DNA of 63,980 nt, filler included, from Dimargaris cristalligena (Eukaryota): the NCBI GenBank assembly GCA_003614675.1. It is 4 parts of 4 records of this genome, joined end to end, with 100 filler letters (N's around TTAATTAATTAA, not from the genome) between each part and the next. Parts side by side here need not be neighbours in the genome. Positions count along the whole stretch, not along the records: positions 16,256 to 32,371 come from ML002859.1; 3 more parts are not named here. One strand, given 5' to 3'. Under the pieces are notes generated by a model. It was not told where the DNA came from, did no database searches, and saw only the letters and a program-made list of their open reading frames with translations. The position numbers were made by a program, and so were the translations under genes. This document shows, one piece after another, positions 2,170 through 48,648 of the stretch (positions are counted from its first letter, which is position 1; each line of letters begins with the position of its first letter).

Positions 2170-4500
2170 TATCGTTTTCCCGTACATCACCCCTGGCAAC
2201 GCCATTTCACAGTCTCTCTCACTTAAAAACAATATGGCATTCATACAGGCTGTATAACGAATAATCCATTTGATGAGGTAAATATTACTGGTCAAAAGTT
2301 ATTCTCCCATACATATATTGTGTAAAATCTTATACAGTTGGGTTGAAGTTCACCCATATGCTAATATTCATCCGAAGCTCCCAGCGATGTCTGCGTCTGT
2401 ATTCTACTAAATTGGATTTGTGAGCCGTCGGATTAAAATGTCTATACCATTTGACCTGCAGGCCTAGTGCATATATATATAGCCATCCTTTAGCACTACT
2501 AATTTCCAATAAAACCCAGACGCGTACGCCAAAACCAGCCAATAAGGGCATTGTTGGCTTAGTTTGGCTGATGTGGGTTATGATATAGGAACTGTGCCTG
2601 GAGAGGCATTAGCCCGTCCTGATAATAATCGGCGAATTGTCGATTATGTCGGATTAAACTACATGTGGTCGGTTTCTTATTATACTGCTGCTGTATAGTA
2701 TTTGACAGACTGACTGACTACGTTCAACACCCTCTCGCAGTGAAAATAACATCGATATACTGGTAGATATATGTTCCATTTTATAGGCCCAGGTTAATGT
2801 TAGGTATGCACGTAGATGGCTGTGGAGTTGGCGATGGGATAGTAAACACCATGGACGAGAGCGGAAAGTATGGCCTGCTAAGTTATCACGACATTCATGG
2901 GCTGGACCAGGCACCTTGCTATTTTAGAAGGGAACTGATACCAATGTACTGTTCTAACCATACGTAGAGTTCCAGCGTCACTCATACCACGCCTATAAAC
3001 ACAGTGCCTCCCCAAACAAGTTGTCAGTACCGATGGACAGTGTATTGGCTTGGCGACTACAGCCCCAAGATTACATCAAACGATATTACTACATTGATGT
3101 AATGTTTAAATGGACATCCTCATACTACAGATATTTAACTCCAAGAGAAGATCAGCGATCTCCCCCCTTGCCTAACATTACGGCCCCTTAAACTCACCTC
3201 TGATATGGTGTAATAAATCGCCCTGAACTCGACTCTACGTTTCTCGTTTTGCATCGTTTCATACAAGAGAATTGTTCCCGACCAGATTCATTTAGCGTAA
3301 TTATCCAAGCTATACGGTTGTAAGGATATCGTTTATAGCTCCAAAGTTGGATGTCGCAAGTATAGGAATTTTTCCAATTACTCACATATAAATAATGAAG
3401 CGGTGACCAGTCAGTTCCGTGCCACTGCCGGCGAAGCTGTGAATCCTATACATAGTTAATATGGCTATATTACTTTGATGCTTATGAACTCATGAAATTG
3501 CGATGTTCACGCATATATGTTGGCAACCGAGGGAACCGGTCACTATAGGATGCCACTTTTTATATACCCTAACGGCCCGTACTGGCCTGTAATACTAAGT
3601 AATCATACTACCCTTTCTTATTTGACCTCGTCAAATAGGAATAAATATCGTTGAAGGTTTGTTTTAATCTTTTCCATCGTTATGTAGGTTTTTAAAGTGA
3701 CTACGGTGGAAAATAGGCGGGGTATGTCACATGAAGTAGAATGGCCTGGTCCAGAAAACAGATTTGCCATTATTCTGTAGCCGTCACCCAGAGTTGGAGG
3801 AAATATATCGCCCTTTCATGTAAGGTCCACCCGACTCAACAAACCAAAGCATCCGCTCACCTACCTGAATTACGCCCCGAAGTAGAACCCAAACCATAGG
3901 GGGAATGGCGCGCTTCATCTTCAACCAATGGCACTTGGCAACATTATTGGTTTTGTCAGGTTCTTATCTCTCGGGCCAGCTCCCTGGTAGCCATACAAAC
4001 GAATTGACCTTGTTCTGTTTCTACTCCCGACTATGATGGCCGCGCGTTTCGTAGGTCTAAAACCCCGACCCTTGGCACTCTTGAGCCCATTGCCAAGTGG
4101 GTCGTTTTATACCACCTCATTGGCCAAATCGAGTGCAGATGGCCCTTACGCTCCATTCCGTGGCTAGCGCCAGGCAGAGCTAACAGCTGAACGGCTCATA
4201 GGCAATGTGCCGTCTTCGCGCAGGAGGGATTGGCCTAAGCACGCCCGCCTGTATATGGGCATGCTAAACAGAAAAGGGCGGTGCAGTTAGCGGGGCTATA
4301 TCCAACCTAGAAAATGCCAGCCGAACGACGAGTACCATGCTATTCTGAATGGGAGTAGCCAGCCACCCCGTCGCCTAACACAGACCCTCCCGCTGACTGA
4401 GGCCAGACCCCGCGCCGTGTCCCTCCAAGTGTCACCCCTCCGACAGCATACGATCATAACAGATATGTGGAACCACAGTCACGCAGTTAGCCATATATGC

Positions 4501-4808: not shown

Positions 4809-7474
4809 ATGCCGTGCCTAATTCGCCCTGGCCAATGGTCTTTCCAAAGGTAGGCGCTGTTATTCGGGATGGAATAGAACGGTCCTCTGATTAGCGGTTG
4901 GACTACGTCTATGGTGGCTCTTCTTCCAGCGTAGAGCTTTTCTCTGGACCACCGCCGGCCTTTCTATCTGTCCGCTTGTATATGTGCGGGTTTGGCTCTG
5001 GTTCGACAGTGCGGGTCACCTGTAGCCTTTTGTCGATATGCTATGGTATAATGCTCCGCATATCTATACCTGCCCTACTCTCTCTGTGGTACTACGAGTC
5101 AAGTCTGCTGACGTTGGCTACTTTCCAATGGCCCATTCAGTGGAGTGACTGTTGTTGGATCAACCCGCAACGGCCTGTTCTTGTGACTAGCCTTATCACG
5201 GTGGTCAGCTGCGGGGTAGTTTGCATAGGAATGGTTCTGGGACGGTTTATGGTCAGCCTCTCTAAATGGCCCGCCCACTTGATATAGACTCCCATGACAA
5301 TCAAACTCCGACAGCTGGCCTTGGTGCTCAAAACAGGGCGAGCGCCTCATTGCTTAATATATCAGGCTAAACTTATGGACAACGTGGGTCTAACTACACA
5401 CTCCGTCGCTGTGATTTTATACATTTGACCCTTTTCCAGACTGGCGACCCGGCCTTCTTTGCCCGCCCGCCACTCCCTCTTGAAGAATGCCACAAGGTCC
5501 CTAAGCACAGGTAATCATACGACGGGTCTATTGTTGGGCATGGTCCTCCCTCCTTTGTTCTGGTTCCCTTCTGCACCGCCCCAGTGCCTTGTTAATACAT
5601 AGTATACCCCGCTTTTAACCTTTACTAACATATCATCCGCTCGGCTGAAATACACCACCAACATTGCCCCCACTACGAATAATATACCCATAGCCGCTAC
5701 CAATGTGGCCACGGAGGACCACGAGCCCACGTTCCTCCAATCGGTCGAGCTGTTTTTTGACCGGGCTGCCAAAGTCAGCAATATCCACCCGAAGACCCTG
5801 GCCCATATTAAGGCCGTGGACTGCGTGCTGAGCGTGTCCTTCCCTATTGAGGTAGGTCCCCGGCATTAGTCTTCTGCAAAATTATTTAAAAATCAATTCC
5901 GTGGACTACCTCTTGTAAGGTGCTCTCTACTTAGACCTGATGGGGTTTTTCATGCCCATGCTTATACCCGTACTCATTTCCATTTCAAATATTTAATCAT
6001 GCCCATGTGCTTTACTAGATTGATGAGAACAACCACAAGATCATCCATGGCTATCGCGCCCAGCACTCGCGACACCGCCTCCCTGCTAAGGGCGGCATTC
6101 GCTTTTCGCCTGAAGTCGACTTGCACGAAGTGGAGGCCCTGGCGTCTCTTGTAAGTAAAAATGCGTGGCTGACATACCCTTGCACGAACTGGTGTTTCTT
6201 TTCTCTTACAATAGCATACGTATAGATGGCCAGTCTTAAAAATGGCATGTATCCTAGACTGGATTTGGTGCTGACATTGCTATCCGCTCCACTTCTCTGA
6301 AACCACCCTACATTACCGATAGATGACATACAAGTGTGCCGTGGTCAACGTGCCTTTCGGCGGTGCCAAAGGAGGGATCATGATTGACCCCAAGCAATGG
6401 ACACCCGCTCAGCTGGAACGCATTACTCGTCGTTACACCATGGAGCTCTGCCAGAAGGGGTTTATTGGACCTGGTATTGATGTCCCTGCCCCCGACGTGG
6501 GTACCTCCGCCCGAGAAATGTCCTGGATTATGGACACCTACCGGCAATTTAACTCCCAAGATGTCAACGCAGCCGGCTGTGTGACCGGTAAGCCCGTTGC
6601 CCTCGGGGGAGTGCGGGGTCGAACCGAAGCCACCGGTTTGGGCGTGTTCTACGGCATCCGGGAGTTCCTTACCTACCCGGAAGTGCAGGAGAAATACAAG
6701 CTACCGGGCAATGTCCAGGGTATGTCCGTGGTCATCCAAGGGTTTGGTAATGTAGGCTACTGGGCGGCCAAATTTTTTGAGAGCAACGGTGCCAGAATAA
6801 TTGCCATTGGTGAACGGGACTGCGGTGCCTTTTCCCCCAAGGGCCTAGATATCGAGAAGCTCTTCCAGCACCGGAATGAAACCGGGAGCTTTCGCGACTT
6901 TCCCGATATCCAAATTATCGAAGACCCGTTGCAGGTACTCGAGCTGGAGTGCGACGTCCTAATCCCGGCCGCTCTGGAACGCCAAATCGGGCTTAAGAAT
7001 GCCCACAAAGTCCGGGCCAAGATGGTAGGCGAGGCCGCCAATGGACCCATTACGCCCGGCGGCCACGACATTTTGGTGCAACGCGGTATCGCTGTCGTTC
7101 CCGACCTCTTGCTCAACGCTGGTGGGGTGTGTGTCTCGTATTTCGAGTGGCTCAAGAATTTGTCACACGTGCGATTCGGTCGCATGAACAAGAAGTGGGA
7201 CGAGAGGGGCAAATCCCAGCTCTTGGCACTGGTGGAACAGAACGCTGGTCGCCATTTGACGGAATCTGAACGGCGCCAGTTGATCCACGGGGCCGAGGAA
7301 CATGAATTGGTCTACTCGGGCCTGGAGGATACCATGATTGATGCTTGCGCCGAAACTCGGGCTACGGCTAACGAGCTCAAGACGGACTATCGTACCGCCG
7401 CTCTATCCAATGCGATTCGCAAGATCGCAACGGTGTACGAAGGTTCCGGCACTCTGTTCAGCTCCGGCGGATAA
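4809..7474 (+). CDS. GLUD1: Mitochondrial NAD(P)-dependent glutamate dehydrogenase, GLUD1-like. Exons 4809-4849, 5440-5510, 5694-5851, 6019-6150, 6323-7474
   Basis: All junctions are GT-AG and keep frame. Spliced protein: Arg-rich presequence [38 protein letters not shown], then [65 protein letters not shown] (Rossmann), [18 protein letters not shown]. Exons 1-2 are less certain than exons 3-5. Confidence 0.93.
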
Positions 7475-16155: not shown

Positions 16156-16255
16156 NNNNNNNNNNNNNNNNNNNNNNNNNNNNNNNNNNNNNNNNNNNNT
16201 TAATTAATTAANNNNNNNNNNNNNNNNNNNNNNNNNNNNNNNNNNNNNNNNNNNN
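16156..16255. other. Assembly gap linker N44-TTAATTAATTAA-N44
   Basis: Identical 100-nt construct occurs three times. The 12-mer places stops in all six frames. Confidence 0.97.
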
Positions 16256-19200
16256 AGGGGGGTGAGAGCCATGAGTCAATGGCCTGGAACTCGACATTAG
16301 GGAGGGCCTGTCGAATGGAATCAAGTTGGATGTGGTCAGCTGTATTGGTTAATAGTAACTGAATACCACCGTCATCCACCATATATTGGATACGGTCAGT
16401 GGGGAAGGCTGGGTCAATCGGGACAATAACTGCGCCGGCCAAACCAACACCCATATAGGCGACAATGGTGCTGGGAGCCCGGTCGACAATTAGACCAACG
16501 GGCGTTCCCCGTTCGATCCCCCGAAGCAGTAAGCGGTGGGCCAGGTTCACGGACCGGGAGTGCAGATCCGCATAGGACCACTGTAAGTTGCTAAACTCGA
16601 CTGCGATTGTGCCAGGGGCTGAATGGGCCGTTCGGGTGAATAGTTCGGGTACACAGGCCTCAAAATCAATTGCTATATGAGGGCGGGCAAGCTGCTCAGT
16701 GATCAGAGCCGTCTCACTTGTTGAAAGCATTGGAAGGTCCTTGGTGAAAACCTGCCCATCTGAATTAGCCAAGGCAGAGACCAAACCAGAGAATAGTGTG
16801 ATTAGGTGGTGCGACAAAGTCTCAATATAGCGCTGGTCAAATTCGGACGCACTCCAGTTCAAGTTCACGGCGAGTTGGCCGTGTTCAACCTGGGCAATGA
16901 CAGTTAGAGGGTAGTCCGAAGACCTAAGAACACGAGGCTCCGTGAACGTAACCGAATACTCTAGACTCTCCAAGTCGGTGTCGGGGAGATTTTCATAAAC
17001 CACCAATGTGTTGAACATATCACTCGGGCGAACCTCGCCGTCAACCCACTCATTGATCTTGGATAAATGTAGGTGTTCAAAGGGGACCATTTGTTGGGAG
17101 CATTGGTGAATCACTGTCATTAGTTCGCTCACCGTCATTTCAGATTTCAGTGAGACCCGGAAAGGCACGGTATTGATAAAGCAGCCCAGGAGGGACTCAA
17201 TGCCAGAGAGAGATAGGGCCCGTCCTGAAACGGTGTTACCAAATACCACATCGGACTGATCGGTGTATCGGCTTAGTAAGAGGGACCAGGCAGCCTTGAT
17301 GAGGGTGTACGGCGTAACATTCGCTTGGCGGGTCACTTGGTGCAATTGACGGGCGTCGGGATATAATGTAAACCATAAATCAACCTTGCAAGAGTCAGAT
17401 GTGTTAGGTGGCCTTGGCAAGGACAGCTCGGTGAGTTGTTCCACATCCCGCATATACTCTTGCCAGAACCGCTCAGCTTATGTTTTATCTGAATTTTGAA
17501 TATAGGACACATAGTCATGGAACGAAGCGGACAAGCTGGGGTTTTGCCCGACGTTTCCTTGCAGATGGGAGCGGAGCTGGTTTAACAGAATGCCGATTGA
17601 CCATCCGTCAATGAGGGCATGGTGAATAGTTAGTAGATAGCGGAACGAGTTGGGGGCCAACCGCTTAACGTATATGCGTAGGAGTGACTCATTCGGTTTG
17701 AATCCATTTTCTAGATTCACCTGTAAGAAATCTTCTTCGCTGGAAGCACCGACATCTGACCATTCATTTACGAAATACCAGCCAAACCGGGGTTCTCGGG
17801 TAACTACTTGGACACCCTGGCAGTAGCCGTTACTCCAAGAGGTCACAAACACAGTTCGTAGAATGGCATGGTGACCGACGACAGCCCGAGTAGCAGTTTG
17901 GAGCTGGTCGGAGCCCGATACACCATTCACAGTGAAGGCCAATTGAACCAAGTATTCGGCGGGGTCCTTGGCCGTGGCCGTCCACATGCCCTGCTGCATG
18001 GGCAACATGGGGTAGAGATCCTCCACATCGTGCGCGGTAAGACCAACAGTAGCAAGCTCGGTCTCGAGTGCGGCCAGTTCAGGAATAGTGGTGTTCAGAT
18101 TGGGGAAATCTGACGGGGTCCAGAGAGATGGATACTGCGACAGATCGAGATACTGCACGATATCCTTCAGAGCCTGTCGAACACAATCCAATAGAGATTC
18201 GATAGTGCTTGTTGGGATGACCTGGGGACAGTAATAAACCATGAACGTTAATCCACCGGGAGTTGGTGATCCGACCACCTCCAGTATCTGTGGACGAAGT
18301 TCGGACAGGTCACAGCTGGCCAAGTTGGCCGTCAATTCTGGGCGAAGAGTCCAGTGATACTGGCCATGTTTCATTAAAGCTTCATCCCTTACTGTGGGGT
18401 CCAAGTAGTTGAAGCAGACGCCCAGCGGTGAGTAGGGCCGCTCATTAGAAGACATGCTCTGTGGGTGGCTGGATAGTTGGTAAAGCCCATGCTGTAGCCC
18501 TTGGGGGCCGCTCGACGAGCGAAGGGCCTGTTTGGCTTGTTTAAGGAAATCTAAAATCGCAGTATTAGCATCTACCTGGATCTGGCAGGGGACCATAGAA
18601 GTGAACCAGCCGACGGTGCGACTAGGGTCGAGACTGGGTTGCCACGGATAACGACCGTGTGATTCGTTGAAGACGGTGATGGATGGGCCCTGCGAAATAG
18701 AGTGGAGGGCCTGGAACAAACCAGCAAGCATCAGCTCTAGAGGCTGGACATAAGTAGTATCGGGCTTTAGAATGGCGCTTGACAAGGCAGTATCGAGGAT
18801 GATTGATTGGCACTGGGTGTTCGCCTGGGTGTTCAAAGTTAGGCAGTCTGATCCAGTGAGTTGTAAAAAAGACGCCCTTGGACGCACTTGCGGATAGATC
18901 AGGTTGCCGCTGGAAACGGAATGTTTGGCTTTGTCAACCAACTCTGTTGCCCATTTAGAAAATTTCAAGGGCTGTGGGATTGGTGACTGCCCATTTAGAA
19001 TTCGAGCCAAGTCCTCGAGTAAAACTGACCAGGATACCAAATCCACCACCAGATGGTGGATGGTCAGGAATAGCAGTTTCCTATTAATTGGTCGAGATGC
19101 ATTTGTCAGGTGTGAAGTATCAGGTGTTGGTGTGTTACCATTATCATCCAAAAGAGTAATCAGGCCCGCAGCCAAGTGATGGCCTTGGTTTATGTCAAGT

Positions 19201-22200
19201 GATGACTGAATGGTTAGAAGCTGTTGAGACAGGTCAGAGACTGATGTACTAAGTTCCGCTACCGGAATAGGCAGCCCGGCAAAAGGTGGAAGAATTTGCT
19301 GGGACCATTGGTCTGAATGGCCAGTCGGCTCCTGGGTGAATTGGCAGCGTAACATGTCGTGGGCATTAATCAGTCGGAGCAAGGCAGGGATGAGTTCAGT
19401 GACGGCTAATGGCCGGGTCAGTTCCAGGGCAAACGACTGGTTGAAATGGCTTGGGTTGGACCACGGGTGGTCAAAGAACCCCTGCTGGATCGGGGTGAGT
19501 GAGAATTCTTTACAATATTCCACGGGATGGAATTGGCTGGGTTTTTCACTTGCCGACGAAATTAGGGACATTTTCTTAATGACATCGCGTAAGGGCCCGG
19601 ATCCCAGTAGAGCGGAGGTGGGCAAAGTAAAACCGAGTTGGCGACACTTGGACGAGACTTGGATGGCCAAGATGGAGTCACCCCCAATCTTCACAAATGA
19701 CAAGTCCGGATTGATCTGGTTGAGTGGAAGACCAAGCGTCTCCCCCAGGGACTGCATCAATATGCTTAGTGGCTGACCCTCTTCAGACAAACTGTCTAAT
19801 AGTGAGGATCGTTGCCGTTGGGTAGCTAAATGGTCAGCAAAGTGATTCTGGAGAAACTGGGTATCACATTTGCCATTGTTTGTAAGAGGAACATTTGGAA
19901 GACCTAGGATATAGCTGGGCACCATATAGGACGGTAACTGGTCGGCAACGGAAGCACGCAGTACATCCTCGCTGGCGGTAGAATCCGAGAACACGTAGCC
20001 AACTAGGAACTGGTCGTGGACAAAAACGGCACAGTCTTGGACCCCAGTCTGGCGCATCAGGACACTGCGAATTTCATCCAGCTCGATACGGAACCCCCGC
20101 AGTTTCACCTGACTGTCCATGCGCCCCAAGCACACGACCTGTCCGTTGGGTAGCCAGCGTCCCAGATCACCGGTCCGGTAGACTTTTCCTTGTCCTGTGA
20201 ATGAATTATCGGCGAATTTGGTCAGATTAAGGTCCAGTCGGTTGATGTAGCCGAGGGCAACACCGACACCACCAATGCAAATCTCACCGACGGCACCAAT
20301 CGGAACCAAACGCAGGTTTTCATCCAAAATGTAACACTCGTAGTCGGCCATTGGTCGGCCGATTGGAACACAGCCAGAGGGCGGAACTTCAGTCATAAGG
20401 CAGGCAATGGTGGCTTCAGTCGGCCCGTATACATTATAAAAATTGGTCACTGCTGACCATTGATTTGCCAATTCCCGGGGTAAATGCTCGCCGCCAACCA
20501 GCAAGCTGTTCAGGTTGGTATAGTCCTGGGGATTCAGGGTAGAGATGATGGACGGAAGCAGAATAGTCTGTTGTACTGTTTTCAGTGTTCCCGGAAGATC
20601 GTCGCCGTAGAAGACCAAGGTAGAGCCGTAGCATAAGGGAAGCAAGGTGTTCAAGAAAAAGACGTCAAACCCAGCTGCCATGCCGTTCATGGTTCGGGTA
20701 CCGGGCTGCTGCAGCATCTCGAGTGTAGGGCTGGTAAGCATATTCAAAAGACTGCGATGTTCGACCATAACGCCCTTGGGAAGACCGGTGGAGCCCGAAG
20801 TGAAGACAATGTAGGCCAGGTCTGTTGGTTGATTGGGGTGGAGGGAGGCTATGTTAGTGGTCAACTCGACAACATTGGCAAGGTCGTCAATGGTGATGAC
20901 CTCGCACCACTCTGAGTCCACTCTTGATGCATTCACCACACATGTGCACCCTGCCGTGTCGACAATGTACTTTTGACGGGCAGTTGGGAGCTTGTGATCC
21001 ACCGGTACATAGACGGCTCCAACACTCCAAACGGCCAGCATGCACATAACCGCATCTGGGTGATTGGCCACAATAACGCCGACCTTGTCGCGTGGCTGCA
21101 CCATAGCACGTTGGAGACGCTCGACCAGTCCAAAAACGCGCTGGGAGAGTTGGGCGTAGGTGTAGGTACCTTTGGCAATTTCAGTGGCCACTCGATCGGG
21201 GTACTTTTGAACCATACCAAGGAATAAGTCCAGGACATTTAGGCAGGGACTATCCCGTGTAACCGAATTAGGAGGCCCGAGTGCGAACTTGTCCAGGATG
21301 AGGCTAGCCTCAGTTGGACATACCAGTGATGCCGTGGACCACGGCTGGTGGGCGACCACTACCGAATGAGCATAGGCCAGGAAATTTTGAAGTAACCGGT
21401 TCGCCGTGTCAACGTTGAAGAGGCTCTGATTGAACCTTAACTGGCACACAGGTGTACGGCTATGACAATCAACGACTAATTGTATATCGTAAGGGAACAT
21501 CGTTCGAGGAGACTGGGACCTGACACAGTGAACTATAGTAGACTTGTTCTCGGGACCAATTGGATGGTCGAATGCAACGGATGTACGAGATAAGCCGGAA
21601 ATTCTATGCTGGCCTTCGAGAGACAAGTGGGGGGCAAGAATGTCCATTGAAGGTAAAACGTGGAGTCGGGAGTCTACGATCTGGTGGGTCAGTTGCCTGA
21701 CTACTTCGGGGAAGTCTAATGCCATATTTCCCTTCACTCGAAGAGGTCGTTCCAGTGACGACAAGGTGTCCTTGTCCACCGAAGTGTCGCCATTCTCGGA
21801 AGCCGGGGTAACGATGTCCATAATCAAATCAGTTTGCCCCGTCAGGCGCAACAAAAATGTTGCAAATAGAGAAGACCAGATCCCATATCCCATAACCGAC
21901 TCTTTCGAAGCTTGTGTCTGAATAGTTTCAAACAATCGTTGCTCAATTTTGGTTTCGGCCAAGCTACAAAGGAAAGAGGGAAAAAGGGGGCGAGGTCGGT
22001 CAGTCAGAACAGCCAGTTCAGCCGGTGGGTTCTGAAGAAGAGTGCACCAGTAGTCGAGGTCTACTTCAAATGGCTCATTAGATTTACCAGCCCTCGTGAG
22101 TTTTTTATCGGGTAGATTGGACGGTTGCCCAACCAATTGATTAGTGAGGGCACGTACGATTTCATCAAACTCACTAGTGGACCCAAAGATTTCGTGGACA

Positions 22201-25200
22201 CGGATTACAATTGCCGAATAACTACTGCCAGTTGTTGCAACCGGTAGCTGGTACAAGTCGAATCGGACCAGCACACCTTGATTCAAATCAAATTGAGGCG
22301 CATCCACATTGAACTGGTCGCCATCGAATACTTGAGAGCTGGGAAGCTGGCGCTCAAGCACTTCAGTTCGCACTTGTGGTAGAACGTGGCAGGTGAGAGC
22401 ACCTCGAACGGATATAAACCGGCAACGAAGGGATTCAAATACGGTAGCTAGGCGGTCTATAGCTCGCTGGACCTCCTCCAATTGAAGTGAGGCCTCGGAA
22501 GTAATCGTACAATGATGATAGAAGGCGAATGGCGGACTTTCCAATCGGCTGAGGGACCAGACTCGCTGTTGATGAATAGTGACAGGCATTGTACGAGTAT
22601 ACAGAGGCGACATATCCAAAGAGGTGATGTCGTTATCTTCGACGGTGGAATCGGGGGACTGCTCGTTCGTGCCTTGTTTGACAATGCTCTGGATGATGGG
22701 GGCCAAAGTACGAATCTCAGTGTGTTTAGCCAATTCACCCAAACCGACGGCAATACCGAATTTCTGGAAAATGCGATACTGAAGTAGGTCTAGTTGGGCC
22801 AAAGGAATCCTTGATGTAGACATTAGAGGCACGGTATCAATAGTTACGGCCGAATAATGATTGGAGGATGCGTATATCTCATTCACCACTACCATCAACC
22901 ACCATTCATATTCTGATAAGGATTGTGTTGAACGAGTTGGAAGCGTGGCTAGATAAGCTTGGGCAAAGTGCGGGAGAAGTTGGTCGTCAAGTTCAATCAC
23001 GTGCGGGAATGCGCTGGTCGAGATGATCACATCGGGCATGAGAGTGGCTGGAATGCCGGGTGGGGTCATGGTAGTTTTTAGCCCAATCAAGTCCGCTTCA
23101 GTAGAATTGGAAACCAGAACCACCAGCCGGTCATCAGATAAGACGAGACAGCGTGGTGATTGGGCACCGGCTTTAGTTAATGCCTGAACCAGAGTGCCGA
23201 GATGGATCTGTCGGTCATTAATGACCACTTTCTGGCTGGCCGGGCCCAGAATATGGACAACATCAGCAGTATCGCGATAACCAAGTAAGGGCTGCTTGGG
23301 AGAAGTCTTGTAATCTGGAAATGAAGAGACTAAGAATGTCAGTCTACCAACTACACCAGGGAGACAGGGCTTGCCATCTCTACCCAGCACTTCCAAAGCG
23401 TAGCCATCGTTGGGTGGTTTGTCTATAGAAGGAAGTAAGCAGGAAGCCAGTTGCTCTAGGGTGATACGCCGATGGCCATGAAAAATAGATCCAATAAAAG
23501 CTAGACAGGTGTCGGTTGATTTGGCCAAATCTTCAACATGGGGCCAAGTGTCCTCAGCTAAGTCATAAAGAACTAGACAGTCCCCTACAACCGAACCACG
23601 TGTTGGAGAATCGATGGCCACTGCATAACAATGCGAAGACTTGCCATTCTCATGCATTGGTGAATCAGGAGTCGTTATAGTCACTTGTGAGGTTAGGCAT
23701 AACAGAGTAAGCCATATGGCCTGTGGGCTGTCCAGGGGCAAGGACTCGTCCAAGATATACCACCTCTTGCTATCGATGAAGGTCCGGGTTGATGCAAGGG
23801 TGTGTTGGATGTATGAACTATCAACGTTTGATACCACTGGATTAGCCGAATTATGGCGGGATGAAAACACCAAGGAGGGATCTTGTAGGTCCACCGGTTG
23901 CTTGAATCGACGAGTGACTTGGGTTTCGTTAATTATCTGATCAATCAAGTCTGGTATACCAACCATGGCAGTATCACAATTCAGATAAGGGCGTACATTC
24001 TCAGTGTCAGTGTATGGTAGCCACACGATCTGCGCATCAACGGCCTTGGAACACACCGCCAATTGCTCAACAGTATAGGGTGATGCCAGAGGTACCAATC
24101 GGATACCCATCTTGATCGCACTCACTAGGCAGATCAGCAGATGTTCAACCCTTTCTACTACGGCCACGACGGTTGGATGGGGGGATAAGACCGACTGGCT
24201 GGATAGACCAGCGAGGGAATCAGACAACTGGTCGAGCTGACCATATGATAGAGTGTGGTCTTTTGATACTAGAGCTGGGTGATCAGAAAAATCTAGGAAG
24301 GTGCTCGCCAAACATTGATTTAACGATCGAGGTACTGGGCCAATCGCGGCGCTTCTCGATTCTCGGCCAGTGTGGATGTGGTGATTCAGCGGTAGGTGTG
24401 TGAGTGCGAGCTGGTCTATATGCCTACTAATATCCGCCTCAAGAATCTGCGTGAGAACAAGATGAATCATATCAACTACTTGAATGGCAGATTTTTCCGA
24501 ATAGATGGACGTGTCGTAAAGTAATTTAACCTTAACATACTCGGTGCCATCGATAAAGTCAATGGCCAAAGGGTATTCTGTAAACTCGTGTACGCTTAGG
24601 GCAGATAAAACTAAACTATGTGCTGGATTGACTACAAGAGCAGGGAAATTTTCGAATCCCAGAATGGCTTGGAAAAGGGGACCAGATCGGCCCGCTGAAG
24701 CCCACTTGCTAATGTCCGTTAACAACGAATGTTCGAACGGGACCATGGCCATCTGGCCCTGGTGGAGGGCCTGTAGCCAATCAACAATTAAACAATGGCC
24801 CATGCGCACCCGCAAAGGCAAAGTATTCGTACAGGGACCAATCGTTCGGTCAATTCCAGGAAGGCCTAGGTTGCGTCCGGATAGTGTCACGCCGAACACT
24901 ACTTCATCTTGGTCGAGCAGATGACCCAGAACCAAGGCAAAAGCGGCCCGGAACAGAGTAGCTAGAGTAACCCCGAATTTTTGCGAGCAATGAGTTAACT
25001 GTTCCCTTGCAATACGGACGTTCGTAAAATAAGCGGCTGATCCGGGCAATCCGATGTAGCCGGGATATAGTAGAGGCGCGGGTGTGCTTGGTGCGCCTTT
25101 TAGATAGTCTATCCAGAAGGCCTGGGTCATATCCGAATCGAGCAGACGTACATGATGGACAATTGAGGTGAAGGATGCCGATGGATTCGAAATAAGCAGA

Positions 25201-28200
25201 TTAGGGAGGTGGTAGGTTTCCATCCACGCCTGCAATAGAAGATGTAGCGACCAGCCATCGCAAAGGGAGTGATGGAAAGTAATAATTACATCATGCACCT
25301 GGCTATCAATTGTAGGGAAAACAAAATTGCGGATCATATGATCTTGTAGTGTAAAACCACGCCGGTGGTCTTCGGTAAGAAATTCGTCAAGAGACTTTAG
25401 GGGCAGGTCGGAAATAGTCCAGGCAGTGGGGCACGATCGAAGAACAGCCTGTATATAGCCCCGGGACTGTCTGGATGATGCCTCGAGAAACACAGTGCGC
25501 AGGATGGTGTGCTGTTGGGAAACAGCCTGCCAGGCCTCAAGCAATCGATCGACATTAAGGGGACCATGTAATTGGAAGACGATCTGAACTAGGTAGGTAG
25601 TGGAATCAGTAGATAATCCTGTCAACAGGCCGCTTTGAAGAGCGATGCAGGGTAGCAGGTCTTCTACCTGATCCAGTGGAATGCGACGGTGGTGGAGCTC
25701 GTTGATAATACCCTGTAATTCGGAAGCGGAAAGTTGGAGGTGGGCAAAGTCATACTGCGTGAGGATTGGCTCCAAACTAATGGATTGCGACTGGTTTATA
25801 TCGTTGGCGAGCTGGGAAAGACTCTGGCGCCACTGGGTCATGATTTCATTGACAACGCTTCGACAATAGACCAGCGGATTGTACTCCATAATAAGGCGTA
25901 AAGAGTCCCCGACCACCGTAGGCATGATATCAATGTCATACATAACCGTGTCTTGGGGGGCAAAGTCGTGTAGGCCAAAATGGTCCGACCATTCGATTGA
26001 TAAAATATCGTCGCTTAGACCACCGCCGGTACTGTCGGGATGCTCTGAATAATTGAAACGTGCGTCCAACCGGTCTGGAGACTTGGCCTCCAACTTGGCC
26101 CGCTCCTCCGCCGGTACACCGGGCATGTGTTTTAATAAGGAGTACGGGAATCCCTTCATTGGGATTTTCTGCAGGGCCTCCTTGGTGTGATGCAACAGGC
26201 CCAATAAGGGCTGATCGAGTTGAACCCGAAGAACAAGGGGATAGATGGCGGTAAACCAGCCCACGGTGCGGGTAATGTCTTGATCAGATAACCACGGCTC
26301 ACGGCCATGCCCTTCCATGCAAAAAGTAACCTGGTCCAGCCCAATAGTAGTGGCGAAGGCCTGGGTAAAAGTAGCCAGAAGTAGGTCGCGCGGGGTGACT
26401 CGCAGTTGCGGGACCAGCTGGATCAGTAGTGCCTGGGTTGATTCAGAGTCGAATTCGAAAGAAGTGGAGAGGCGAGCTGCCTGGGTACGGGTAGCATCCA
26501 ATTCATGTGGTGGATGTAGGGCACGGAAATCCCGAATGGGCTTGTCGGAGTCGACCTGAGTGGGCCAGATATCGGCCAACAGAGTTGCTGCATAGTCATC
26601 GAGCTGGGAAGCCCAGGCTTGGAAAGGCAACGTCTTCGGTGGGAGTGAGGCACCTTGGAGCAGGGCATTCAAATCCTCAATCAGAATGCGCCAGGCAACC
26701 AGGTCCACCAAGATGTGATGAATGGTGATAAACAAGCGAAATGGAGACGTACTGTCCGGGTCGTGAATCAGAGCAGCTGCCAACATGGGGCCCGTAGAAA
26801 GGTTAAGGCTGGATTGAACCCGCAGAATAAAGTCGGCATAGTCGTCAGTTGAGACCGTCTCTTCCAACAATAGAAAATCAGTGGAAATGGCTCGGGCTGT
26901 AGGAATCGACTGGACCCATGGCTGGCCATCATTATCGGGCTGGAAACGGGCCCGGAGAATATCGTGGTGGTTGGCTAGGGCCACTAGGGCGTCGGAAATG
27001 GCTGCTAGTGATATATTGGCCTTGGAATTGACCTTCAGGGTTAAGGACTGGTTAAAGTGGTGGGGGTTACGAATACCCACTGTACCAAGCCAGTACTGAC
27101 TAGGGACCAGGGCCACCTCGCCTTGGACTTGTTCCTGATAAGCGGCGTTGCCATTGGTTTGGTGACTAGAGGCCTTTTCAGTGTGCTGGGCCAACTGTTG
27201 GAGCTCGGGGTACTGGTAGATTAATGGTACGGTTAGTTGATATCCCAACTGTTGGCTCTTGGATACCAGTAAAATGGCCGAAATAGAGTCGCCACCGATT
27301 CGGAAAAAGTGGTCGGTGGTACTAATACGGTCGGGGTCCAGCTGCAGAATCTGGCCCCAGACCCGGCGAAGTTCTTCCTCTGTATCCGTTTGAGGGGCGC
27401 TGATGTCAGATCTAGGGGTGGACGACAGTGCGTGGTTTTACACTACGTGATCAACGGAGGGTAACGACCTACGATCCAGTTTGCCCGAGGTTGTATAGAT
27501 AAAGCCCTCCACGGGCATGATCAATTCAGGCACCATTTGTTTGGGGAGTCGACCCCTTAAAAAGTCCAATAAGCCGATTGAGTCGATAGTTTCGGGACTG
27601 GCGTAAATAACCAAGGATTCTTGAATTACAACCGCTATACATTGCTTAAGCCCCAGGAACTGACTTGCAATTTTCTCGATTTCTTCGATCTCGATCCGGT
27701 ACCCGCGTAGTTTGATTTGGTTGTCGATGCGTCCAATAAGTTCGATCGTTCCGCTTGGGAGCCACCGAACGTAATCACCCGTACGGTATACCCGCCCCTC
27801 CCCCAGCGGGTTTGATATAAATTTTTTAGCGGTTAGCTCAGGTAGGTTCTGGTAGCCCCGAGCCACTCCTACACCACCAATGAGCAGTTCGCCAGGAACC
27901 CCGACGGGGACTAGCTGGAGGTCATCGTCGACCACCAGATTGAAAACGTTTTGGATAGGCCGACCGATGGTGATATCGTCATCAGGCCCAATCAACGCCA
28001 CATTGCAGTAAACAGTTATTTCCGTCGGCCCATAATGGTTGGCCAATGTACAGTGGGGCGCCCACTGGGCCTGTTGTTTCGGTAGAAGGGATTCTCCACC
28101 TATAACGGCAATATCCATTTCCGGAGCATCTTGGGGATTCAAGCGAGATAGGAAGGAGGTCACAAGAAACCCTGTATTGACATGTTGCAGGTCGTCCAAT

Positions 28201-29669
28201 AGGCAATCGGTCGGGACTACAACGGTACTGCCGGTGCAAAGACACCGAAGTGTATTAACAAGAATCCCATCAAAGGCAACCGACCCAGTCTGGTAGGCGC
28301 GGCGGCCCGGGCCGTAGGCTTTACCTAAGCACGGATCTATGGATATATTAGCCACACCTAAGTGTTCAACCAAGACACCCTTGGGGCGACCGGTAGTGCC
28401 AGATGTGTAGATAACATAGGCCAAATCATTGGGTGCCGATAGGAGAGGCTGGAAGTCGGAAGGCTCCGTAAATACTGGCTTCGTGACAAACGGGTCAATG
28501 ACCATAATGGGTATATTCGGCTGACCAGGCACCTTTCCGAGCACTGAGTCGGCCACAATCATCATGGCTGCATCACTATCCGTCAGGATATACTGGATTC
28601 GATCGAAGGGGTAGTCAGGGTCAAGGGGTACATAGGCAGCCCCTGATTTGAGGACAGCCAGAATAGCCACATTATAGGCAATCGACTTGGGGATGAGCAG
28701 AGCGAAGAGAACCTCGGGGCGGGCCCCATACTGATTTACTAGAGTTCGGGCCAGCTCCGAACTGGCGTAATCCAGTTGGCCATAGGTCCACTCTTCGCCA
28801 CCGTGGACCAAGGCAAGCTGATGGGGAAAGCGTTTGGCACAGTCGCCGAATAAGTAGTGGAAAGGTTGGTAATCTCCATGGATGGGTTTGGTCATTTGGG
28901 AGAAGTCCAACAGTCGGGTTCGTTCCTGGTCGCTAACCCATGCAATTTCACGTACAAGGATGGGCTGATCACATTCAAATGCTTGGGCCACGGCCAAGAA
29001 AACAGTTTTGAACTGACTAGAGAACTCCGCTACAGCTGAATCGCGATACAGAGCCCGGCCATAAGATACGGTGACCTGGGCGTACCCCTGATGAAGTGTG
29101 CAACTTATGACCAGGTGGGCGGTGCTCTTGGTCAATAGATCCGCGATATATGGGTCGACCTCGGCCTCCTTGGGCTGGCCGTGCCTTTGGTCGATTTCAG
29201 ACATGGGATGGCCCACACTGGTGCCACCTAAATCTGTGTGGAGAACAACTTCCACCGTTGGACTAGGCGAATTGGGACAATTGGGGGGATACGTGGGGTC
29301 GTGGTTTTTCAGGATGGTGGGGGAGACCGGGGTATCAGGATCCATCTGGGCGAGAACCAGCTGAAGTGATCCATGAGACTGTTCAATGATGCCTACGGGC
29401 TCGACCCGGCCTCGCCGATGGGCGAAAGCAGCCACAGGTTGGTGGTAGTAGCGACTTAGAATAATTGCTGTGGCTAGCTGGCTGGTATGCTCAAAGTCGT
29501 CCCGGTGGAAGGGCTTCAGGCCGGAAGAGAAAACTCCGCTCACCCAGGCGGTGTAGCCGGAAAGAGAAACACGGGGCTTGCCAAGGGGTAAATCGATGGC
29601 GGGCCGGTAGTCCACGGGGACCACCGGCAAGCACAAGTTCGAGGAAGGGGTAATCGGGGCTAAGACCAT
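16256..29669 (-). CDS. Multimodular nonribosomal peptide synthetase: C(partial)-A1-[TAA]-T1-E1-C2-A2*-T2*-C3*-A3-T3-E2-C4[TAA inside]-A4, truncated by the gap (* = degenerate). May be a recent pseudogene
   Basis: ORFs 27438-29669, 17478-27248 and 16256-17453 share one frame, offset by 189 and 24 nt. A1: YVIYTSGTTGRPKG, YRTGD. T1: FFRIGGDSI (~27290). E1: HHILVDLVAW, EGHGRE, RTVGWFT. C2: HHSLCDGWS. A3: YIVFTSGSTGLPKG, NVYGPTE, NGK. T3: FVKIGGDSI (~19680). E2: HHLVVDLVSW, ESHGR, RTVGWFT. C4: HHALIDGWS, FGNTVSGR, GCFINTVP. A4 start: WSYADL, VPIDP.FP.DR. Confidence 0.95.
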
Positions 29670-32371
29670 TGTTACGGATCAGTCAGGGTTGGGAGGGCAA
29701 GTCAATCACTAGATTAAATGAATAAGAATGGCCGGCCTTAAAGAATACATAGTCTCGGCTAAGATGCCAAATGTGAAGATTAAGGTGAGACAGAGACTCG
29801 ATATCTATTTATACTACTCGGTTAATGTAAATCTATCTTTTCAACTTATTGGAAGTCATATTTCTTGAGAATCCTAGAGGATAGACTGCCCGTGGAACTG
29901 CAAATGCCCAGAACAGTATGGCTTTCGGTTAGCTAGTTTCAGATCTAGTCTTCTCAACCAGCAAAACGCAGGTGACTCATGGTCGCATTCTAGGGTATTC
30001 TGCCGCGTAGCCCCGGTACTTCTTTTTGACGAACTACAGTATGGATCATAATGTAGTGCCTAAATGGACTGTGGAACAAAGCAATGATATGCCGGTTAAG
30101 TCATCATTTTTCACTGGCTATAAAACAATGCGCAGCACCGGTTGAAGTGGCCCAGCCACTATTGTTTGGGTGCAACACTATGATAGTTTACGTTGCAGAT
30201 ACAATACTCCGACTGTTATGCGTAGTTCATTTTATTAAGAACGCCAATCAGGAGCCAGGCGTTCCTAGTAGAGGCTACGTTAAATATTCCAGGCCATCGC
30301 TCAATCTAATTAACGGGGAACTCCGCCCGTCTCCCATTTAGGATTGTTTCAAGGAGCAGTTTTAGTACCCCCAACCAAAATCAAGACGTACCTGGATCAT
30401 CAACTAGAGAGCCGCAAACAGCCTTTAGTTATAAAGTGCGGTAGCGGAAGTCTTCCAGCGACTCTTTCTCCTAAACTACAAGCACTAATTAATATAAAAT
30501 TATAAAAGAAGTTATTATCAAACAAAAACCTCATAATAATTAGGGGCCCAGTGGTCATCAGCCCGGTAATCCGTGTAATAGTGACTCGGACGTGCGTATG
30601 CAATCACTTGGGGATTGAGATTACAGGTTGTTAAACGTTGAATTTTCTATGGCAGTATTGTAACGGGGGGGAGGGGGTCGAGTAGGGCCGGGTATTTACC
30701 AATTTTGACGCTTCGTTCCGAGTGGGGAGAAATGGGGCCCGGGGGCTCGGGATAGAGACAAATTAGTAAAGGTTAAAATTATGATTTTATTGAAACACGA
30801 TCTTTTTCCGCTTTCGGGTTAAATTCGCCACTTTTATACTTCCGGTTCGGTTATGTCCTCGGTGGCAATATTCATTGCTCGCGCTCCATTTGATGCTGGC
30901 CCAAACATGTTCTGGTCACGTGATGGGGGTACATCATGCGGTTGCAGTATCTTCGGCTAGAAAATCTATTAGCAGAGGGTCTTATCAGTCCTTGGGCAGT
31001 CCTAGATGGCCAATGATACGTCAGTATTATCTAAATGGAGGCTATACATCCATTAACCAACTTGGATAATACTAGCTACGACTCAAATGTAAATTCGCAT
31101 TTTAATTGCGGCATTCGTTGATCAACTTATCGCAACATCTACCTTGGCTGATCTCAGTTGCATTGTTTAGGTGGCGGTCTAAAATTATAAACCCCTGCAT
31201 CAAAGACAGCATTTCATCACGGCAACTCAGTTGGGCTATCTGGGTATTTCCCGACAATAAGGAGTAGGGAGATAGCACCTCATCTAAAAGCCCCGACATT
31301 CCTTACTCACATTAAATTTGCTGGTTGGGAAACCGGAATTTCTAAGTCACCGCCTCGACCAATGTAGTAGTACTGTTCGGTTATGGCATGTTGTGTCTAC
31401 GGGCGGCCTTTTTTCTTTTATGTTTTCAGAAAAATGCCAAAAATGAATCGCCTTCCATGAAATACCGAACAAAACCAAACTGAAAAGAGGTGGTGCCTAC
31501 GTGGTTCTTGCCTATTTGTATATTTTACCTGTTTACCCCCGCCTCATTAGACCGATGTCATTGAACTGTATTTACACTGTTATGCCTGACGCTAATGTCA
31601 CTATTATGCATGAGGTGTTTTATCATTTATATCAAAACCCGAACATGCACTATTCGAATATCAGCCGATTATAGCCCTAGTTTCTTGAGATTCTCTTTTA
31701 AATATCCTTCATAGTATCATTTAGTAGTATTACAACCACTGGGACAGGCCGGCCATTGAAACAACATCCAAAAAGTCACCTGACCTGACCAGCAGGAATG
31801 CGCCACTAAGGCAGCAACGAGCAGTTACTAGCATAATTGATCCCACCAAAAAGAGCCTTGGATATAAAACGGAATATGGCCCTAGTTATCCCGAATTCGA
31901 CATGCCTTAATAAAATAACATTTTATATACAAACATCCCACTTGATACATTGCGGCAATACCTTGCCCACCTCGGCCTTTTTGTAACAGTATCAGTAGTG
32001 CCTTAACATTTATTCCCCCTTATTACTAACATCTCCAGTAGTAGGAAACCCTAGTACCCTCTGTGCTCCTATTCTCCCAAGCCCCATCTTTATATCACGT
32101 ACCCTCCCTGCCTAAAAAACCATATACATACCAGTCACATTTAAAAAAGTATGCCATGATGTCTGTATGGCCATGGTATAAGTGCTCAGCTAGGTAGATA
32201 GTGTAGCTGAGTAGGCCGAGTTGGGCCAGAGAACTGTGTAAATTAACTAGAAGACCAAGTGGGGTAGGCAACTAAGTAACTAAATAGATAGGGTGATCTA
32301 AAGTAATAATAAATTAATTATTCCCGGTGGGAATAATAGGTATAATCCATCTTTATTTTGGTTTTCGAACA

Positions 32372-32471
32372 NNNNNNNNNNNNNNNNNNNNNNNNNNNNN
32401 NNNNNNNNNNNNNNNTTAATTAATTAANNNNNNNNNNNNNNNNNNNNNNNNNNNNNNNNNNNNNNNNNNNN
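32372..32471. other. Assembly gap linker N44-TTAATTAATTAA-N44
   Basis: Same construct as at 16156. Confidence 0.97.
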
Positions 32472-48548: not shown

Positions 48549-48648
48549 NNNNNNNNNNNNNNNNNNNNNNNNNNNNNNNNNNNNNNNNNNNNTTAATTAA
48601 TTAANNNNNNNNNNNNNNNNNNNNNNNNNNNNNNNNNNNNNNNNNNNN
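48549..48648. other. Assembly gap linker N44-TTAATTAATTAA-N44
   Basis: Same construct as at 16156. Confidence 0.97.

Follow-up and report, generated by a model that had tools for sequence, protein, structure and literature searches.

Programmed stop-codon readthrough exists, and in fungi A-to-I editing corrects premature stops. Inverted chimeras formed by multiple displacement amplification (MDA) have been described by Lasken and Stockwell (2007; PMC1855051). A published genome of Dimargaris cristalligena, a fungus-parasitic, early-diverging fungus, is a SPAdes co-assembly of 1-cell to 100-cell libraries prepared by MDA, and 27 nonribosomal peptide synthetase (NRPS) genes and a lineage-specific expansion were reported, according to the available text of PMC6784888.

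A giant NRPS gene of this species contains two in-frame stops, TAA 1 and TAA 2. With fairly high confidence, TAA 1 is attributed to a fold-back chimera and TAA 2 to a real, strain-specific nonsense mutation, with no part played by readthrough, editing or introns. One stop being in all likelihood an artefact and the other a plain nonsense mutation, no special decoding is needed.

The NRPS frame and its domains

The window, which is the whole stretch of 63,980 bases that was analysed, consists of four short contigs with artificial N linkers between them. These joins (44 N, TTAATTAATTAA, 44 N) are located at 16156..16255, 32372-32471 and 48549-48648. The NRPS contig is a draft contig of 16,116 bases, and the NRPS frame is cut at the contig end. 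This partial coding frame (16257..29669, minus strand) runs from an ATG at 29669 to 16257 as a single frame of 4471 codons, with X at codons 744 and 4064. The stop-to-stop open reading frames of the minus strand (27438..29678, 17478..27437 and 16200..17477) all lie in that frame, which is broken only by TAA at 27438-27440 (codon 744) and at 17478-17480 (codon 4064). An earlier, sequence-only reading of one frame interrupted by two TAA codons is therefore confirmed. Its extent of 16256-29669 stands as 4471 codons but not as the limit of the gene: the frame ends at 16256 because the contig ends there, and P0002, a protein of the other strain, goes on.

The nearest relatives of the frame are D. 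cristalligena NRPS-like proteins. As in a multi-module NRPS, adenylation, carrier (PP-binding) and condensation domains are repeated in one polypeptide, with Pfam totals of 685.3 bits in six stretches for Condensation, 537.7 bits in four for AMP-binding and 79.5 bits in two for PP-binding. The core motifs of active domains, which we take to be HHxxxD in C, GGxS in T and SGTTGxPKG in A, are seen in modules 1 and 3 and also in C4.

All domains are encoded on the minus strand. Adenylation domain 1 (aa 277-606; 27852..28841; PF00501, 211.7 bits) carries SGTTGRPKG at aa 423, and carrier domain 1 (aa 765-829; 27183..27377; PF00550, 50 bits) carries GGDS at aa 792. These are followed by a Condensation-family domain (aa 848-1295; 25785..27128; PF00668, 166.1 bits; HHILVD at aa 984), which, from a motif, is a candidate for the epimerisation type, and by condensation domain 2 (aa 1340-1744; 24438..25652; PF00668, 151.7 bits; HHSLCD at aa 1466). 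The second module (21312..24290) is degenerate by Pfam matches and motif scan. AMP-binding is matched there only in part (aa 1794-1891, 37.6 bits), PP-binding not at all, and Condensation weakly (aa 2532-2786, 63.2 bits) and with HHxxxD missing. The A-core and GGxS are missing from module 2 and HHxxxD from this third C-like domain in P0002 likewise, and over the shared part P0002 has an identical set of four HHxxxD and two GGxS matches.

Adenylation domain 3, including a C-terminal subdomain (aa 2820-3267; 19869..21212), matches PF00501 with 226.1 bits and PF13193 with 37 bits, and carrier domain 3 (aa 3304-3363; 19581..19760; PF00550, 35.2 bits) carries GGDS at aa 3329. The next Condensation-family domain (best stretch aa 3529-3842; 18144..19085; PF00668, 109.6 bits) carries HHLVVD at aa 3538. 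Condensation domain 4 (aa 3883-4303; 16761..18023) is split by TAA 2. Profile positions 2-181 are matched in aa 3883-4059 and positions 195-440 in aa 4066-4303, so one Condensation match lies on both sides of the stop, as had been claimed, and when read through with X the domain is a single stretch, 3883-4303. The last match is the start of a further adenylation domain (aa 4344-4456; 16302..16640; profile 1-119 of 384), which is cut by the contig end. P0002 extends this domain 192 residues beyond the end of the window's frame, to SGTTGRPKG and further.

The first stop and an inverted repeat

Four public runs (X1-X4) were compared with the NRPS contig, X1 being flagged as a possible source. Study P1 comprises X1, X3 and X4 (two samples), and study P2 comprises X2, another strain. 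X1 and X3/X4 are separate samples of a single study, presumably of one culture. To judge from the available part of the species' genome paper (PMC6784888), X1, X3 and X4 would be amplified libraries. The runs were seen as contigs, which drop rare variants, and minority molecules could escape notice. At the sites that mark X2 only (17480, 17598, 18851, 19226, 19865, 21659, 23033, 23148, 23658, 24055 and 28506), X3 and X4 have the window's genotype, with non-zero depth and zero depth of other letters among the sites listed, an identity limited to the markers that each run covers. Many other letters are found between 20580 and 21323, in short contigs with a summed depth of up to 1730. They are interpreted as paralogues aligned at 90% likeness, since the residues of P0002 are unchanged over this stretch, and were excluded from the strain comparison.

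TAA 1 (27438..27440, minus strand; codon 744) lies in the linker that joins adenylation domain 1 to carrier domain 1, and the carrier domain behind it is intact, as the sequence-only reading had noticed. The stop is kept in X1 alone of the four runs (0 other of depth 80.8). The gene strand has GCC in single contigs of X2 (203/203), X3 (83.9/83.9) and X4 (5.09/5.09 depth, the depth of X4 being only about 5 at both TAA sites), where a minority with TAA 1 is possible in X3 and X4, and the residue in P0002 is Ala. The stop belongs to a nine-base block (27438..27446, minus strand; codons 742-744) with five letters (27438, 27439, 27440, 27443 and 27446) that are found only in the window and X1. The three codons are GTA GTG TAA (VV and the stop) in the window and X1, and TTA TTG GCC (LLA) in X2, X3 and X4, the latter matching P0002. 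The block is present in one of the three P1 runs and in none of the single P2 run, so it is confined to one library, as is expected of an MDA chimera.

The block lies within an inverted repeat. Arm A (25339..25362) is located inside condensation domain 2 and arm B at 27430..27453, and the pair (24 nt, 92% complementary) is 2067 nt apart. The arms are complementary at 22/24 positions in the window, but at 16/24 in the letters of the other runs. The nine-base block is the inverted copy of 25350-25358, a reverse-complement match to sequence close by in the same molecule. The 18-mer around TAA 1 has a single other match in the 63,980-base window, at 25341-25358 on the opposite (+) strand with two mismatches, whereas 0.02 are expected by chance and two matches occurred in 0 of 100 shuffles. 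AACC and TGATC are common to both arms at the block edges, and these lengths fall within the short junctions of 2-21 nt given in the available text of PMC1855051.

The X1 contig that carries TAA 1 (record 6) extends over 25329-27453, so that its end lies 13 bases beyond the stop. Behind 27453 it has a loose end of 10 letters that is the exact reverse complement of 25329-25338, and X1 is without cover in 27554-29705. At this contig end, two letters (AC vs TT at 25344-25345) are those of arm B and the rest is a copy of arm A, and a single simple junction therefore cannot account for it. The window letter at 25359, in arm A, is arm B's letter and differs from all of X1-X4 (A>C). Just outside arm A, the T at 25366 also differs from all four runs (T>C), and neither arm accounts for it. 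A joint in X1 from 27308 to 16257 (back 11052) was considered as the chimera behind the contig end and dropped, its shorter side being only 36 letters; it may represent a carrier-domain look-alike downstream, with the contig running past the window's contig end.

The block and the dead-ending X1 contig are what a fold-back amplification chimera is expected to leave. Most probably TAA 1 is an artefact that arose in DNA amplification and assembly, and it would be absent from the organism's DNA. In one library, a DNA molecule would have folded back between the imperfect inverted repeats 2 kb apart (25339-25362 and 27430-27453), which would put nine opposite-strand bases, GTA GTG TAA, in place of the genomic TTA TTG GCC. 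The assembly consensus would then have taken over the chimeric block. The presence of arm B's letter at 25359 in the window is proposed to result from the same event.

In-vivo template-switch mutations look like clean conversions that make the arms of a repeat more alike. TAA 1 might accordingly be real in some nuclei or cells, through a template switch (quasi-palindrome correction) between the inverted repeats in a nucleus that X1 happened to sample. The block is a clean conversion that brings the arms closer (22/24 vs 16/24), it has full depth in X1 (80.8), and the window has the reciprocal letter at 25359. This explanation is nevertheless unlikely, as the block is missing from X3 and X4, which have the same genotype and belong to the same study, and 2067 nt is far for events of this type. 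Furthermore, the X1 contig goes into 10 letters of arm A's flank instead of the true upstream sequence and the next 2.1 kb are uncovered, which points to a chimeric molecule and away from a converted chromosome. The artefact that had been suggested from the sequence, C>T damage from amplification or sequencing, agrees with a fold-back origin of TAA 1 in being an artefact, but TAA 1 has the form of an inverted nine-base block and not of C>T damage.

The second stop and the strain difference

TAA 2 (17478..17480, minus strand; codon 4064) lies inside condensation domain 4. It is present in all three P1 runs (0 other of 102.5 in X1, 0 of 16.9 in X3 and 0 of 4.9 in X4), in contigs that reach at least 260 bases to each side and beside which a minority with GAA is possible. 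X2 reads GAA (Glu) at this codon (186/186 depth), and P0002 also has Glu. The paralogous NRPSs, whose alignment had been proposed as a check, agree: the closest ones (P0004, P0007 and P0008) have Glu at this position in their best-matching modules. In the sequenced strain TAA 2 is thus real DNA, a strain-specific G>T nonsense polymorphism (GAA to TAA). It could have originated in culture rather than in the wild strain, because X1 and X3/X4 presumably come from one culture. Comparison with another isolate and further runs, another of the checks proposed, thus supports an artefact at TAA 1 and an allele at TAA 2.

G>T is a typical damage-type change. Both stops would be artefacts if TAA 2 were also an error, such as G>T damage common to the libraries of one study, and the three runs that hold it do all come from one study, with a depth of only 4.9 in X4. 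This is distinctly improbable, since TAA 2 is found in two samples and three runs, in long clean contigs with depths of 102.5, 16.9 and 4.9. The P1 libraries appear to be separate preparations, because the TAA 1 chimera is present in X1 and absent from X3 and X4, yet all of them contain TAA 2. A search of the window found no repeat near TAA 2 and no second copy of its surroundings.

The differences between X2 and the window in the pieces with a full list of them (16281-19576, 22889-26298 and 26684-27237), two window-only letters being set aside, comprise six missense, one nonsense and three synonymous changes. There are 3.12 nonsynonymous sites for each synonymous one, which gives a ratio of about 0.64, the changes being too few to tell relaxed from purifying selection.

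Repeat-induced point mutation produces C>T (G>A) changes mostly at CpA. The NRPS family is much duplicated (relatives were found, and the available part of PMC6784888 reports its expansion), and the two CAA>TAA changes considered in the sequence-only reading would fit such a process. It has scarcely any probability as the source of the stops, however, as the other runs read GCC at TAA 1 and GAA at TAA 2. TAA 2 goes back to GAA through G>T, and TAA 1 took the place of GCC in a five-letter block replacement, so neither shows the expected change, and the other strain differences, among those listed, are of mixed types. The recent nonsense allele envisaged earlier fits TAA 2, but as GAA>TAA and not as CpA>TpA.

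TAA 2 would end translation inside condensation domain 4, so that the product of this strain would at best be a protein of three modules that lacks the later ones. The most likely reading of TAA 2 is a loss-of-function allele of recent origin in a gene family with many duplicates. There is a slender chance that it is tolerated, either because low-level readthrough gives some full-length synthetase or because the truncated enzyme, with its three modules, yields another, shorter product, as a strain-level chemistry switch. If so, the TAA 2 polymorphism would be a natural chemistry switch within the expanding NRPS family of a mycoparasite.

Decoding of the stops and comparison with known systems

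A gene switch in which programmed readthrough, editing of the RNA or a small intron bypasses TAA 2, or both stops, has a very slight probability. The domain is intact on either side of TAA 2, and the stretch downstream of it (16281-17477) has a single further difference from the other strain, but intact motifs are expected equally of a very young nonsense allele. Conservation of the stop, which marks recoding sites, is not observed. The other strain has Ala (GCC) and Glu (GAA) in place of the two stops and the paralogues have sense residues, and there is accordingly no conserved recoding signal. Conversion of UAA to Trp would take two edits. The 113 nt from TAA 2 on contain no stable fold (z-score +0.78; the fold is as good or better in 159 of 200 shuffles), and the NRPS contig has no Rfam match.

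TAA also functions as a normal terminator in the window. The open reading frame for glutamate dehydrogenase (GDH; 6323-7474) ends in TAA four residues past the end of its alignment (residues 1-379 of 383 aligned to 106-495 of 6dqg_A, a chain of 496 residues), which puts the terminator of the GDH gene at the point where solved GDH chains stop. The use of TAA as a terminator in neighbouring genes had been pointed out before. It holds for GDH, but GDH and the other genes named are not physical neighbours of the NRPS gene, because the window joins four contigs and only 29670-32371 adjoins the frame. Introns over both stops were rejected, since other runs have open coding sequence there and the Pfam matches run on without a break; the match that spans TAA 2 leaves no room for one. 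The 30- or 42-nt introns proposed over TAA 1 are not needed, because the stretch is open in three of the four runs and is read through in P0002. With stops that are not shared with the other strain, no fold, no Rfam match and a normal TAA in GDH, the suggestion of regulated readthrough or RNA-level repair is without support.

The locus is mainly a caution that in a public draft genome of an early-diverging fungus a single NRPS gene contains both a false stop, most likely chimera-derived, and a true nonsense codon. The gene model P0003 treats 31 codons around TAA 1 as spliced out and has its end at TAA 2, and NRPS family counts and domain maps built on models of this type will be distorted. One member of the Dimargaris NRPS expansion is broken in one strain and open at both sites in another. 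Such broken and open alleles represent ordinary gene birth and death and give no lead to a new decoding mechanism.

Programmed readthrough and A-to-I stop editing share with this locus an in-frame stop in an otherwise intact long frame, whereas the NRPS stops are not conserved and have no known leaky context or structure. Compared with the MDA inverted chimera of Lasken and Stockwell (2007; available text of PMC1855051), the window shows a clean nine-base substitution with no junction, and the end of the X1 contig is a mosaic with two arm-B letters within the arm-A copy. TAA 1 resembles that chimera in being an inverted copy from the same molecule 2 kb away, with TGATC and AACC shared at the block edges, in one library only, presumably an MDA preparation, and with a contig that dead-ends in the flank of the other site. 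TAA 2 resembles strain-specific nonsense polymorphisms and young pseudogenes, with a presumed loss of function and a single base that separates its stop from the sense codon of the other strain, within an expanded gene family.

The NRPS frame and its surroundings

Three joins (16156-16255, 32372-32471 and 48549-48648), each composed of 44 N, TTAATTAATTAA and a further 44 N, are present in the window, which therefore consists of four short draft contigs placed end to end; gene order across the joins is meaningless. The NRPS gene belongs to the second contig (16256-32371, 16,116 bases), whose end cuts it short. The genes that a sequence-only reading had called its neighbours, including glutamate dehydrogenase (GDH), are sited on other contigs and are not its neighbours. 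Upstream of the ATG (29670-32371), the sole open reading frame of at least 70 codons is one of 85 codons on the opposite strand. Another contig contains a 567-amino-acid open reading frame (51996-53699, plus strand) that combines an ACT domain with a complete biopterin-dependent aromatic amino acid hydroxylase domain (530.6 bits); enzymes of this type are said to be rare in fungi.

Three minus-strand stop-to-stop open reading frames (27438..29678, 17478..27437 and 16200..17477) share one frame and are separated by TAA at 27438-27440 (TAA 1) and TAA at 17478-17480 (TAA 2). The frame comprises 4471 codons when counted from the ATG at 29669; TAA 1 is codon 744 and TAA 2 codon 4064. A Pfam scan of the frame read through with X at the stops (P0001) detected six Condensation, four AMP-binding and two PP-binding stretches. 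For domain placement, P0001 was cut into nine segments, each scanned separately. The domains are AMP-binding (residues 277-606), PP-binding (765-829), Condensation (848-1295 and 1340-1744), a 98-residue AMP-binding remnant (1794-1891, 37.6 bits), a weak Condensation domain (2532-2786, 63.2 bits), AMP-binding with its C-terminal subdomain (2820-3267), PP-binding (3304-3363), Condensation (best stretch 3529-3842, and 3883-4303) and the start only of AMP-binding (4344-4456). TAA 1 lies in the linker preceding an intact carrier domain, and TAA 2 lies within a single condensation domain, where the profile match breaks off at position 181 and resumes at 195. The original description of one NRPS frame broken by two TAA codons was correct.

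The second module (21312-24290, residues 1794-2786) looks degenerate in both strains compared. Neither a PP-binding match nor a GGxS motif was found in it by Pfam and motif scan, and HHxxxD is missing from its weak C-like domain. Possible readings are an inactive spacer module or the trace of an older decay.

Strains and public gene models

The stretch is present in five public sequencing runs, which come from two studies; none of them is on record as RNA. Four runs (X1-X4) were compared over the whole NRPS contig, as contigs rather than raw reads. X1, a possible source of the window, is from sample S1 and X3 and X4 are from one sample, S3, all in study P1; X2, from sample S2 of study P2, is another strain. 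Differences found in X2 only occur at 17480, 17598, 18851, 18920, 19226, 19865, 21150, 21659, 23033, 23148, 23658, 24055 and 28506. X3 and X4 match the window at the 11 of these 13 sites that both cover, X3 being without cover at 18920 and 21150. Over the pieces where every difference is listed, X2 and the window differ by 6 missense, 1 nonsense and 3 synonymous changes; with 3.12 nonsynonymous sites per synonymous site in the NRPS gene, the ratio is about 0.64, from numbers too small to draw on. Upstream of the gene, X2 carries one extra base behind 30095, and three of its further differences may fall in the region 29670-30802.

A protein search with the NRPS returned 625 proteins at E <=0.001 among 1472 scored candidates, and the top matches are named Dimargaris cristalligena by their sources. 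The public gene model P0003 (3596 amino acids), encoded on a contig likewise 16,116 bases long, is identical to the window frame save for two residues that border gaps. Codons 733-763, 1748-2118 and 3511-3575 are missing from it, and 4063 is its last codon; it splices round TAA 1 and terminates at TAA 2. P0002 (4582 amino acids, partial), from a different assembly of the species, shows 16 residue differences from the window. It reads Leu-Leu-Ala at 742-744 (Val-Val-stop in the window) and Glu at 4064, and extends 192 residues past the window's contig end, through an adenylation core motif. In-frame stop-free stretches were removed as introns from P0002 (81 codons, 24237-24479) and from P0003 (31, 371 and 65 codons; 27381-27473, 23316-24428 and 18945-19139, respectively). 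These introns fall in open frame and are probably gene-caller workarounds or artefacts; X2 DNA over the 81-codon stretch is collinear and gapless.

TAA 2 and the case for recoding

TAA 2 is retained in X1, X3 and X4 (0 other letters at depths of 102.5, 16.9 and 4.9), in contigs with at least 260 bases on either side and no other difference. X2 has C for A at 17480 (186 of 186 depth), giving GAA on the gene strand. The 20 letters round TAA 2 have no second copy in the window. Two samples carry this stop; one shows the chimera at TAA 1 and the other does not, so the two were prepared separately. At the aligned position, P0002 has Glu, as do the paralogues P0004, P0007 and P0008 in the modules that match best, P0006 has Asp and P0009 has Ser; among 267 aligned segments of 120 listed proteins, Ala (73), Glu (40), Gln (39) and Lys (20) are commonest. 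TAA 2 is very probably a real G>T nonsense change and a strain-specific allele. It would truncate the protein inside condensation domain 4, beyond the HHALID motif at residue 4016, costing it the remainder of that domain and every later module; we infer loss of function.

A CAA>TAA change had been proposed at both stops, and the other runs contradict it, with GCC at TAA 1 and GAA at TAA 2. 

A recoding mechanism in which readthrough, editing or splicing bypasses the stops is highly improbable. The other strain lacks both stops, the 113 nt from TAA 2 onward are no better folded than shuffles (z-score +0.78), and an Rfam search of the NRPS contig matched no family. Against splicing, the introns of the public models lie in open frame. 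The TAA of the GDH open reading frame (6323-7474) comes four residues after the end of its alignment to solved GDH chains, and one of these chains itself stops one residue past its own last aligned residue; the earlier view that TAA terminates GDH normally is borne out by this ending near the end of the solved chains. Readthrough, editing and splicing are unsupported because of the non-shared stops, the lack of a fold or Rfam match, the normal GDH TAA and the probable intron workarounds. The sequence is as first described, and the biology is ordinary.

TAA 1 and its inverted copy

The window's letters at TAA 1 agree with X1 alone among X1-X4. X2, X3 and X4 carry other letters at 27438, 27439, 27440, 27443 and 27446 at full depth (203/203, 83.9/83.9 and 5.09/5.09, respectively), and their codons read TTA TTG GCC (Leu-Leu-Ala). 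A single 3587-base contig of X3 spans TAA 1 with only five differences from the window, all of them letters of this block. The 18 letters round TAA 1 match the window at one other place, on the opposite strand (25341-25358, 2 mismatches); the number of matches expected by chance is 0.02. A repeat search paired 25339-25362 (arm A) with 27430-27453 (arm B) as an inverted repeat of 24 nt, 92% complementary and 2067 nt apart. The arms are complementary at 22/24 positions in the window versus 16/24 with the letters of X2, X3 and X4, and in each of its five window-only letters the block agrees with the other arm.

The X1 contig with the block covers 25329-27453 and stops 10 letters on. These end letters mismatch the window's continuation and instead reproduce exactly, as reverse complement, positions 25329-25338, which flank arm A; two letters within the contig end are arm B's rather than arm A's. 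X1 cover is zero in 27554-29705. At 25359, in arm A, the window has A, the letter of arm B, versus C in all four runs. The inverted copy, the X1 contig end and position 25359 together suggest that molecules in one library joined the two arm sites in inverted orientation; the consensus would then have taken up pieces of the inverted join at both sites. At 25366, the window has T (His1435) versus C (Arg) in all four runs, and neither arm accounts for this. A perfect 12-base palindrome, GATCATATGATC, lies at 25332-25343, at the edge of arm A where X1 contigs break, and may favour fold-back.

TAA 1 is, with high probability, an artefact of amplification and assembly. A published Dimargaris cristalligena genome is described as a SPAdes co-assembly of amplified 1-cell to 100-cell libraries, in which the majority of the 27 NRPS genes each sit singly on a short contig (PMC6784888). 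According to one account of multiple displacement amplification, over 70% of chimeras are primed at 2-21 complementary bases, and the proposed inverted join at TAA 1 matches the behaviour described there (PMC1855051).
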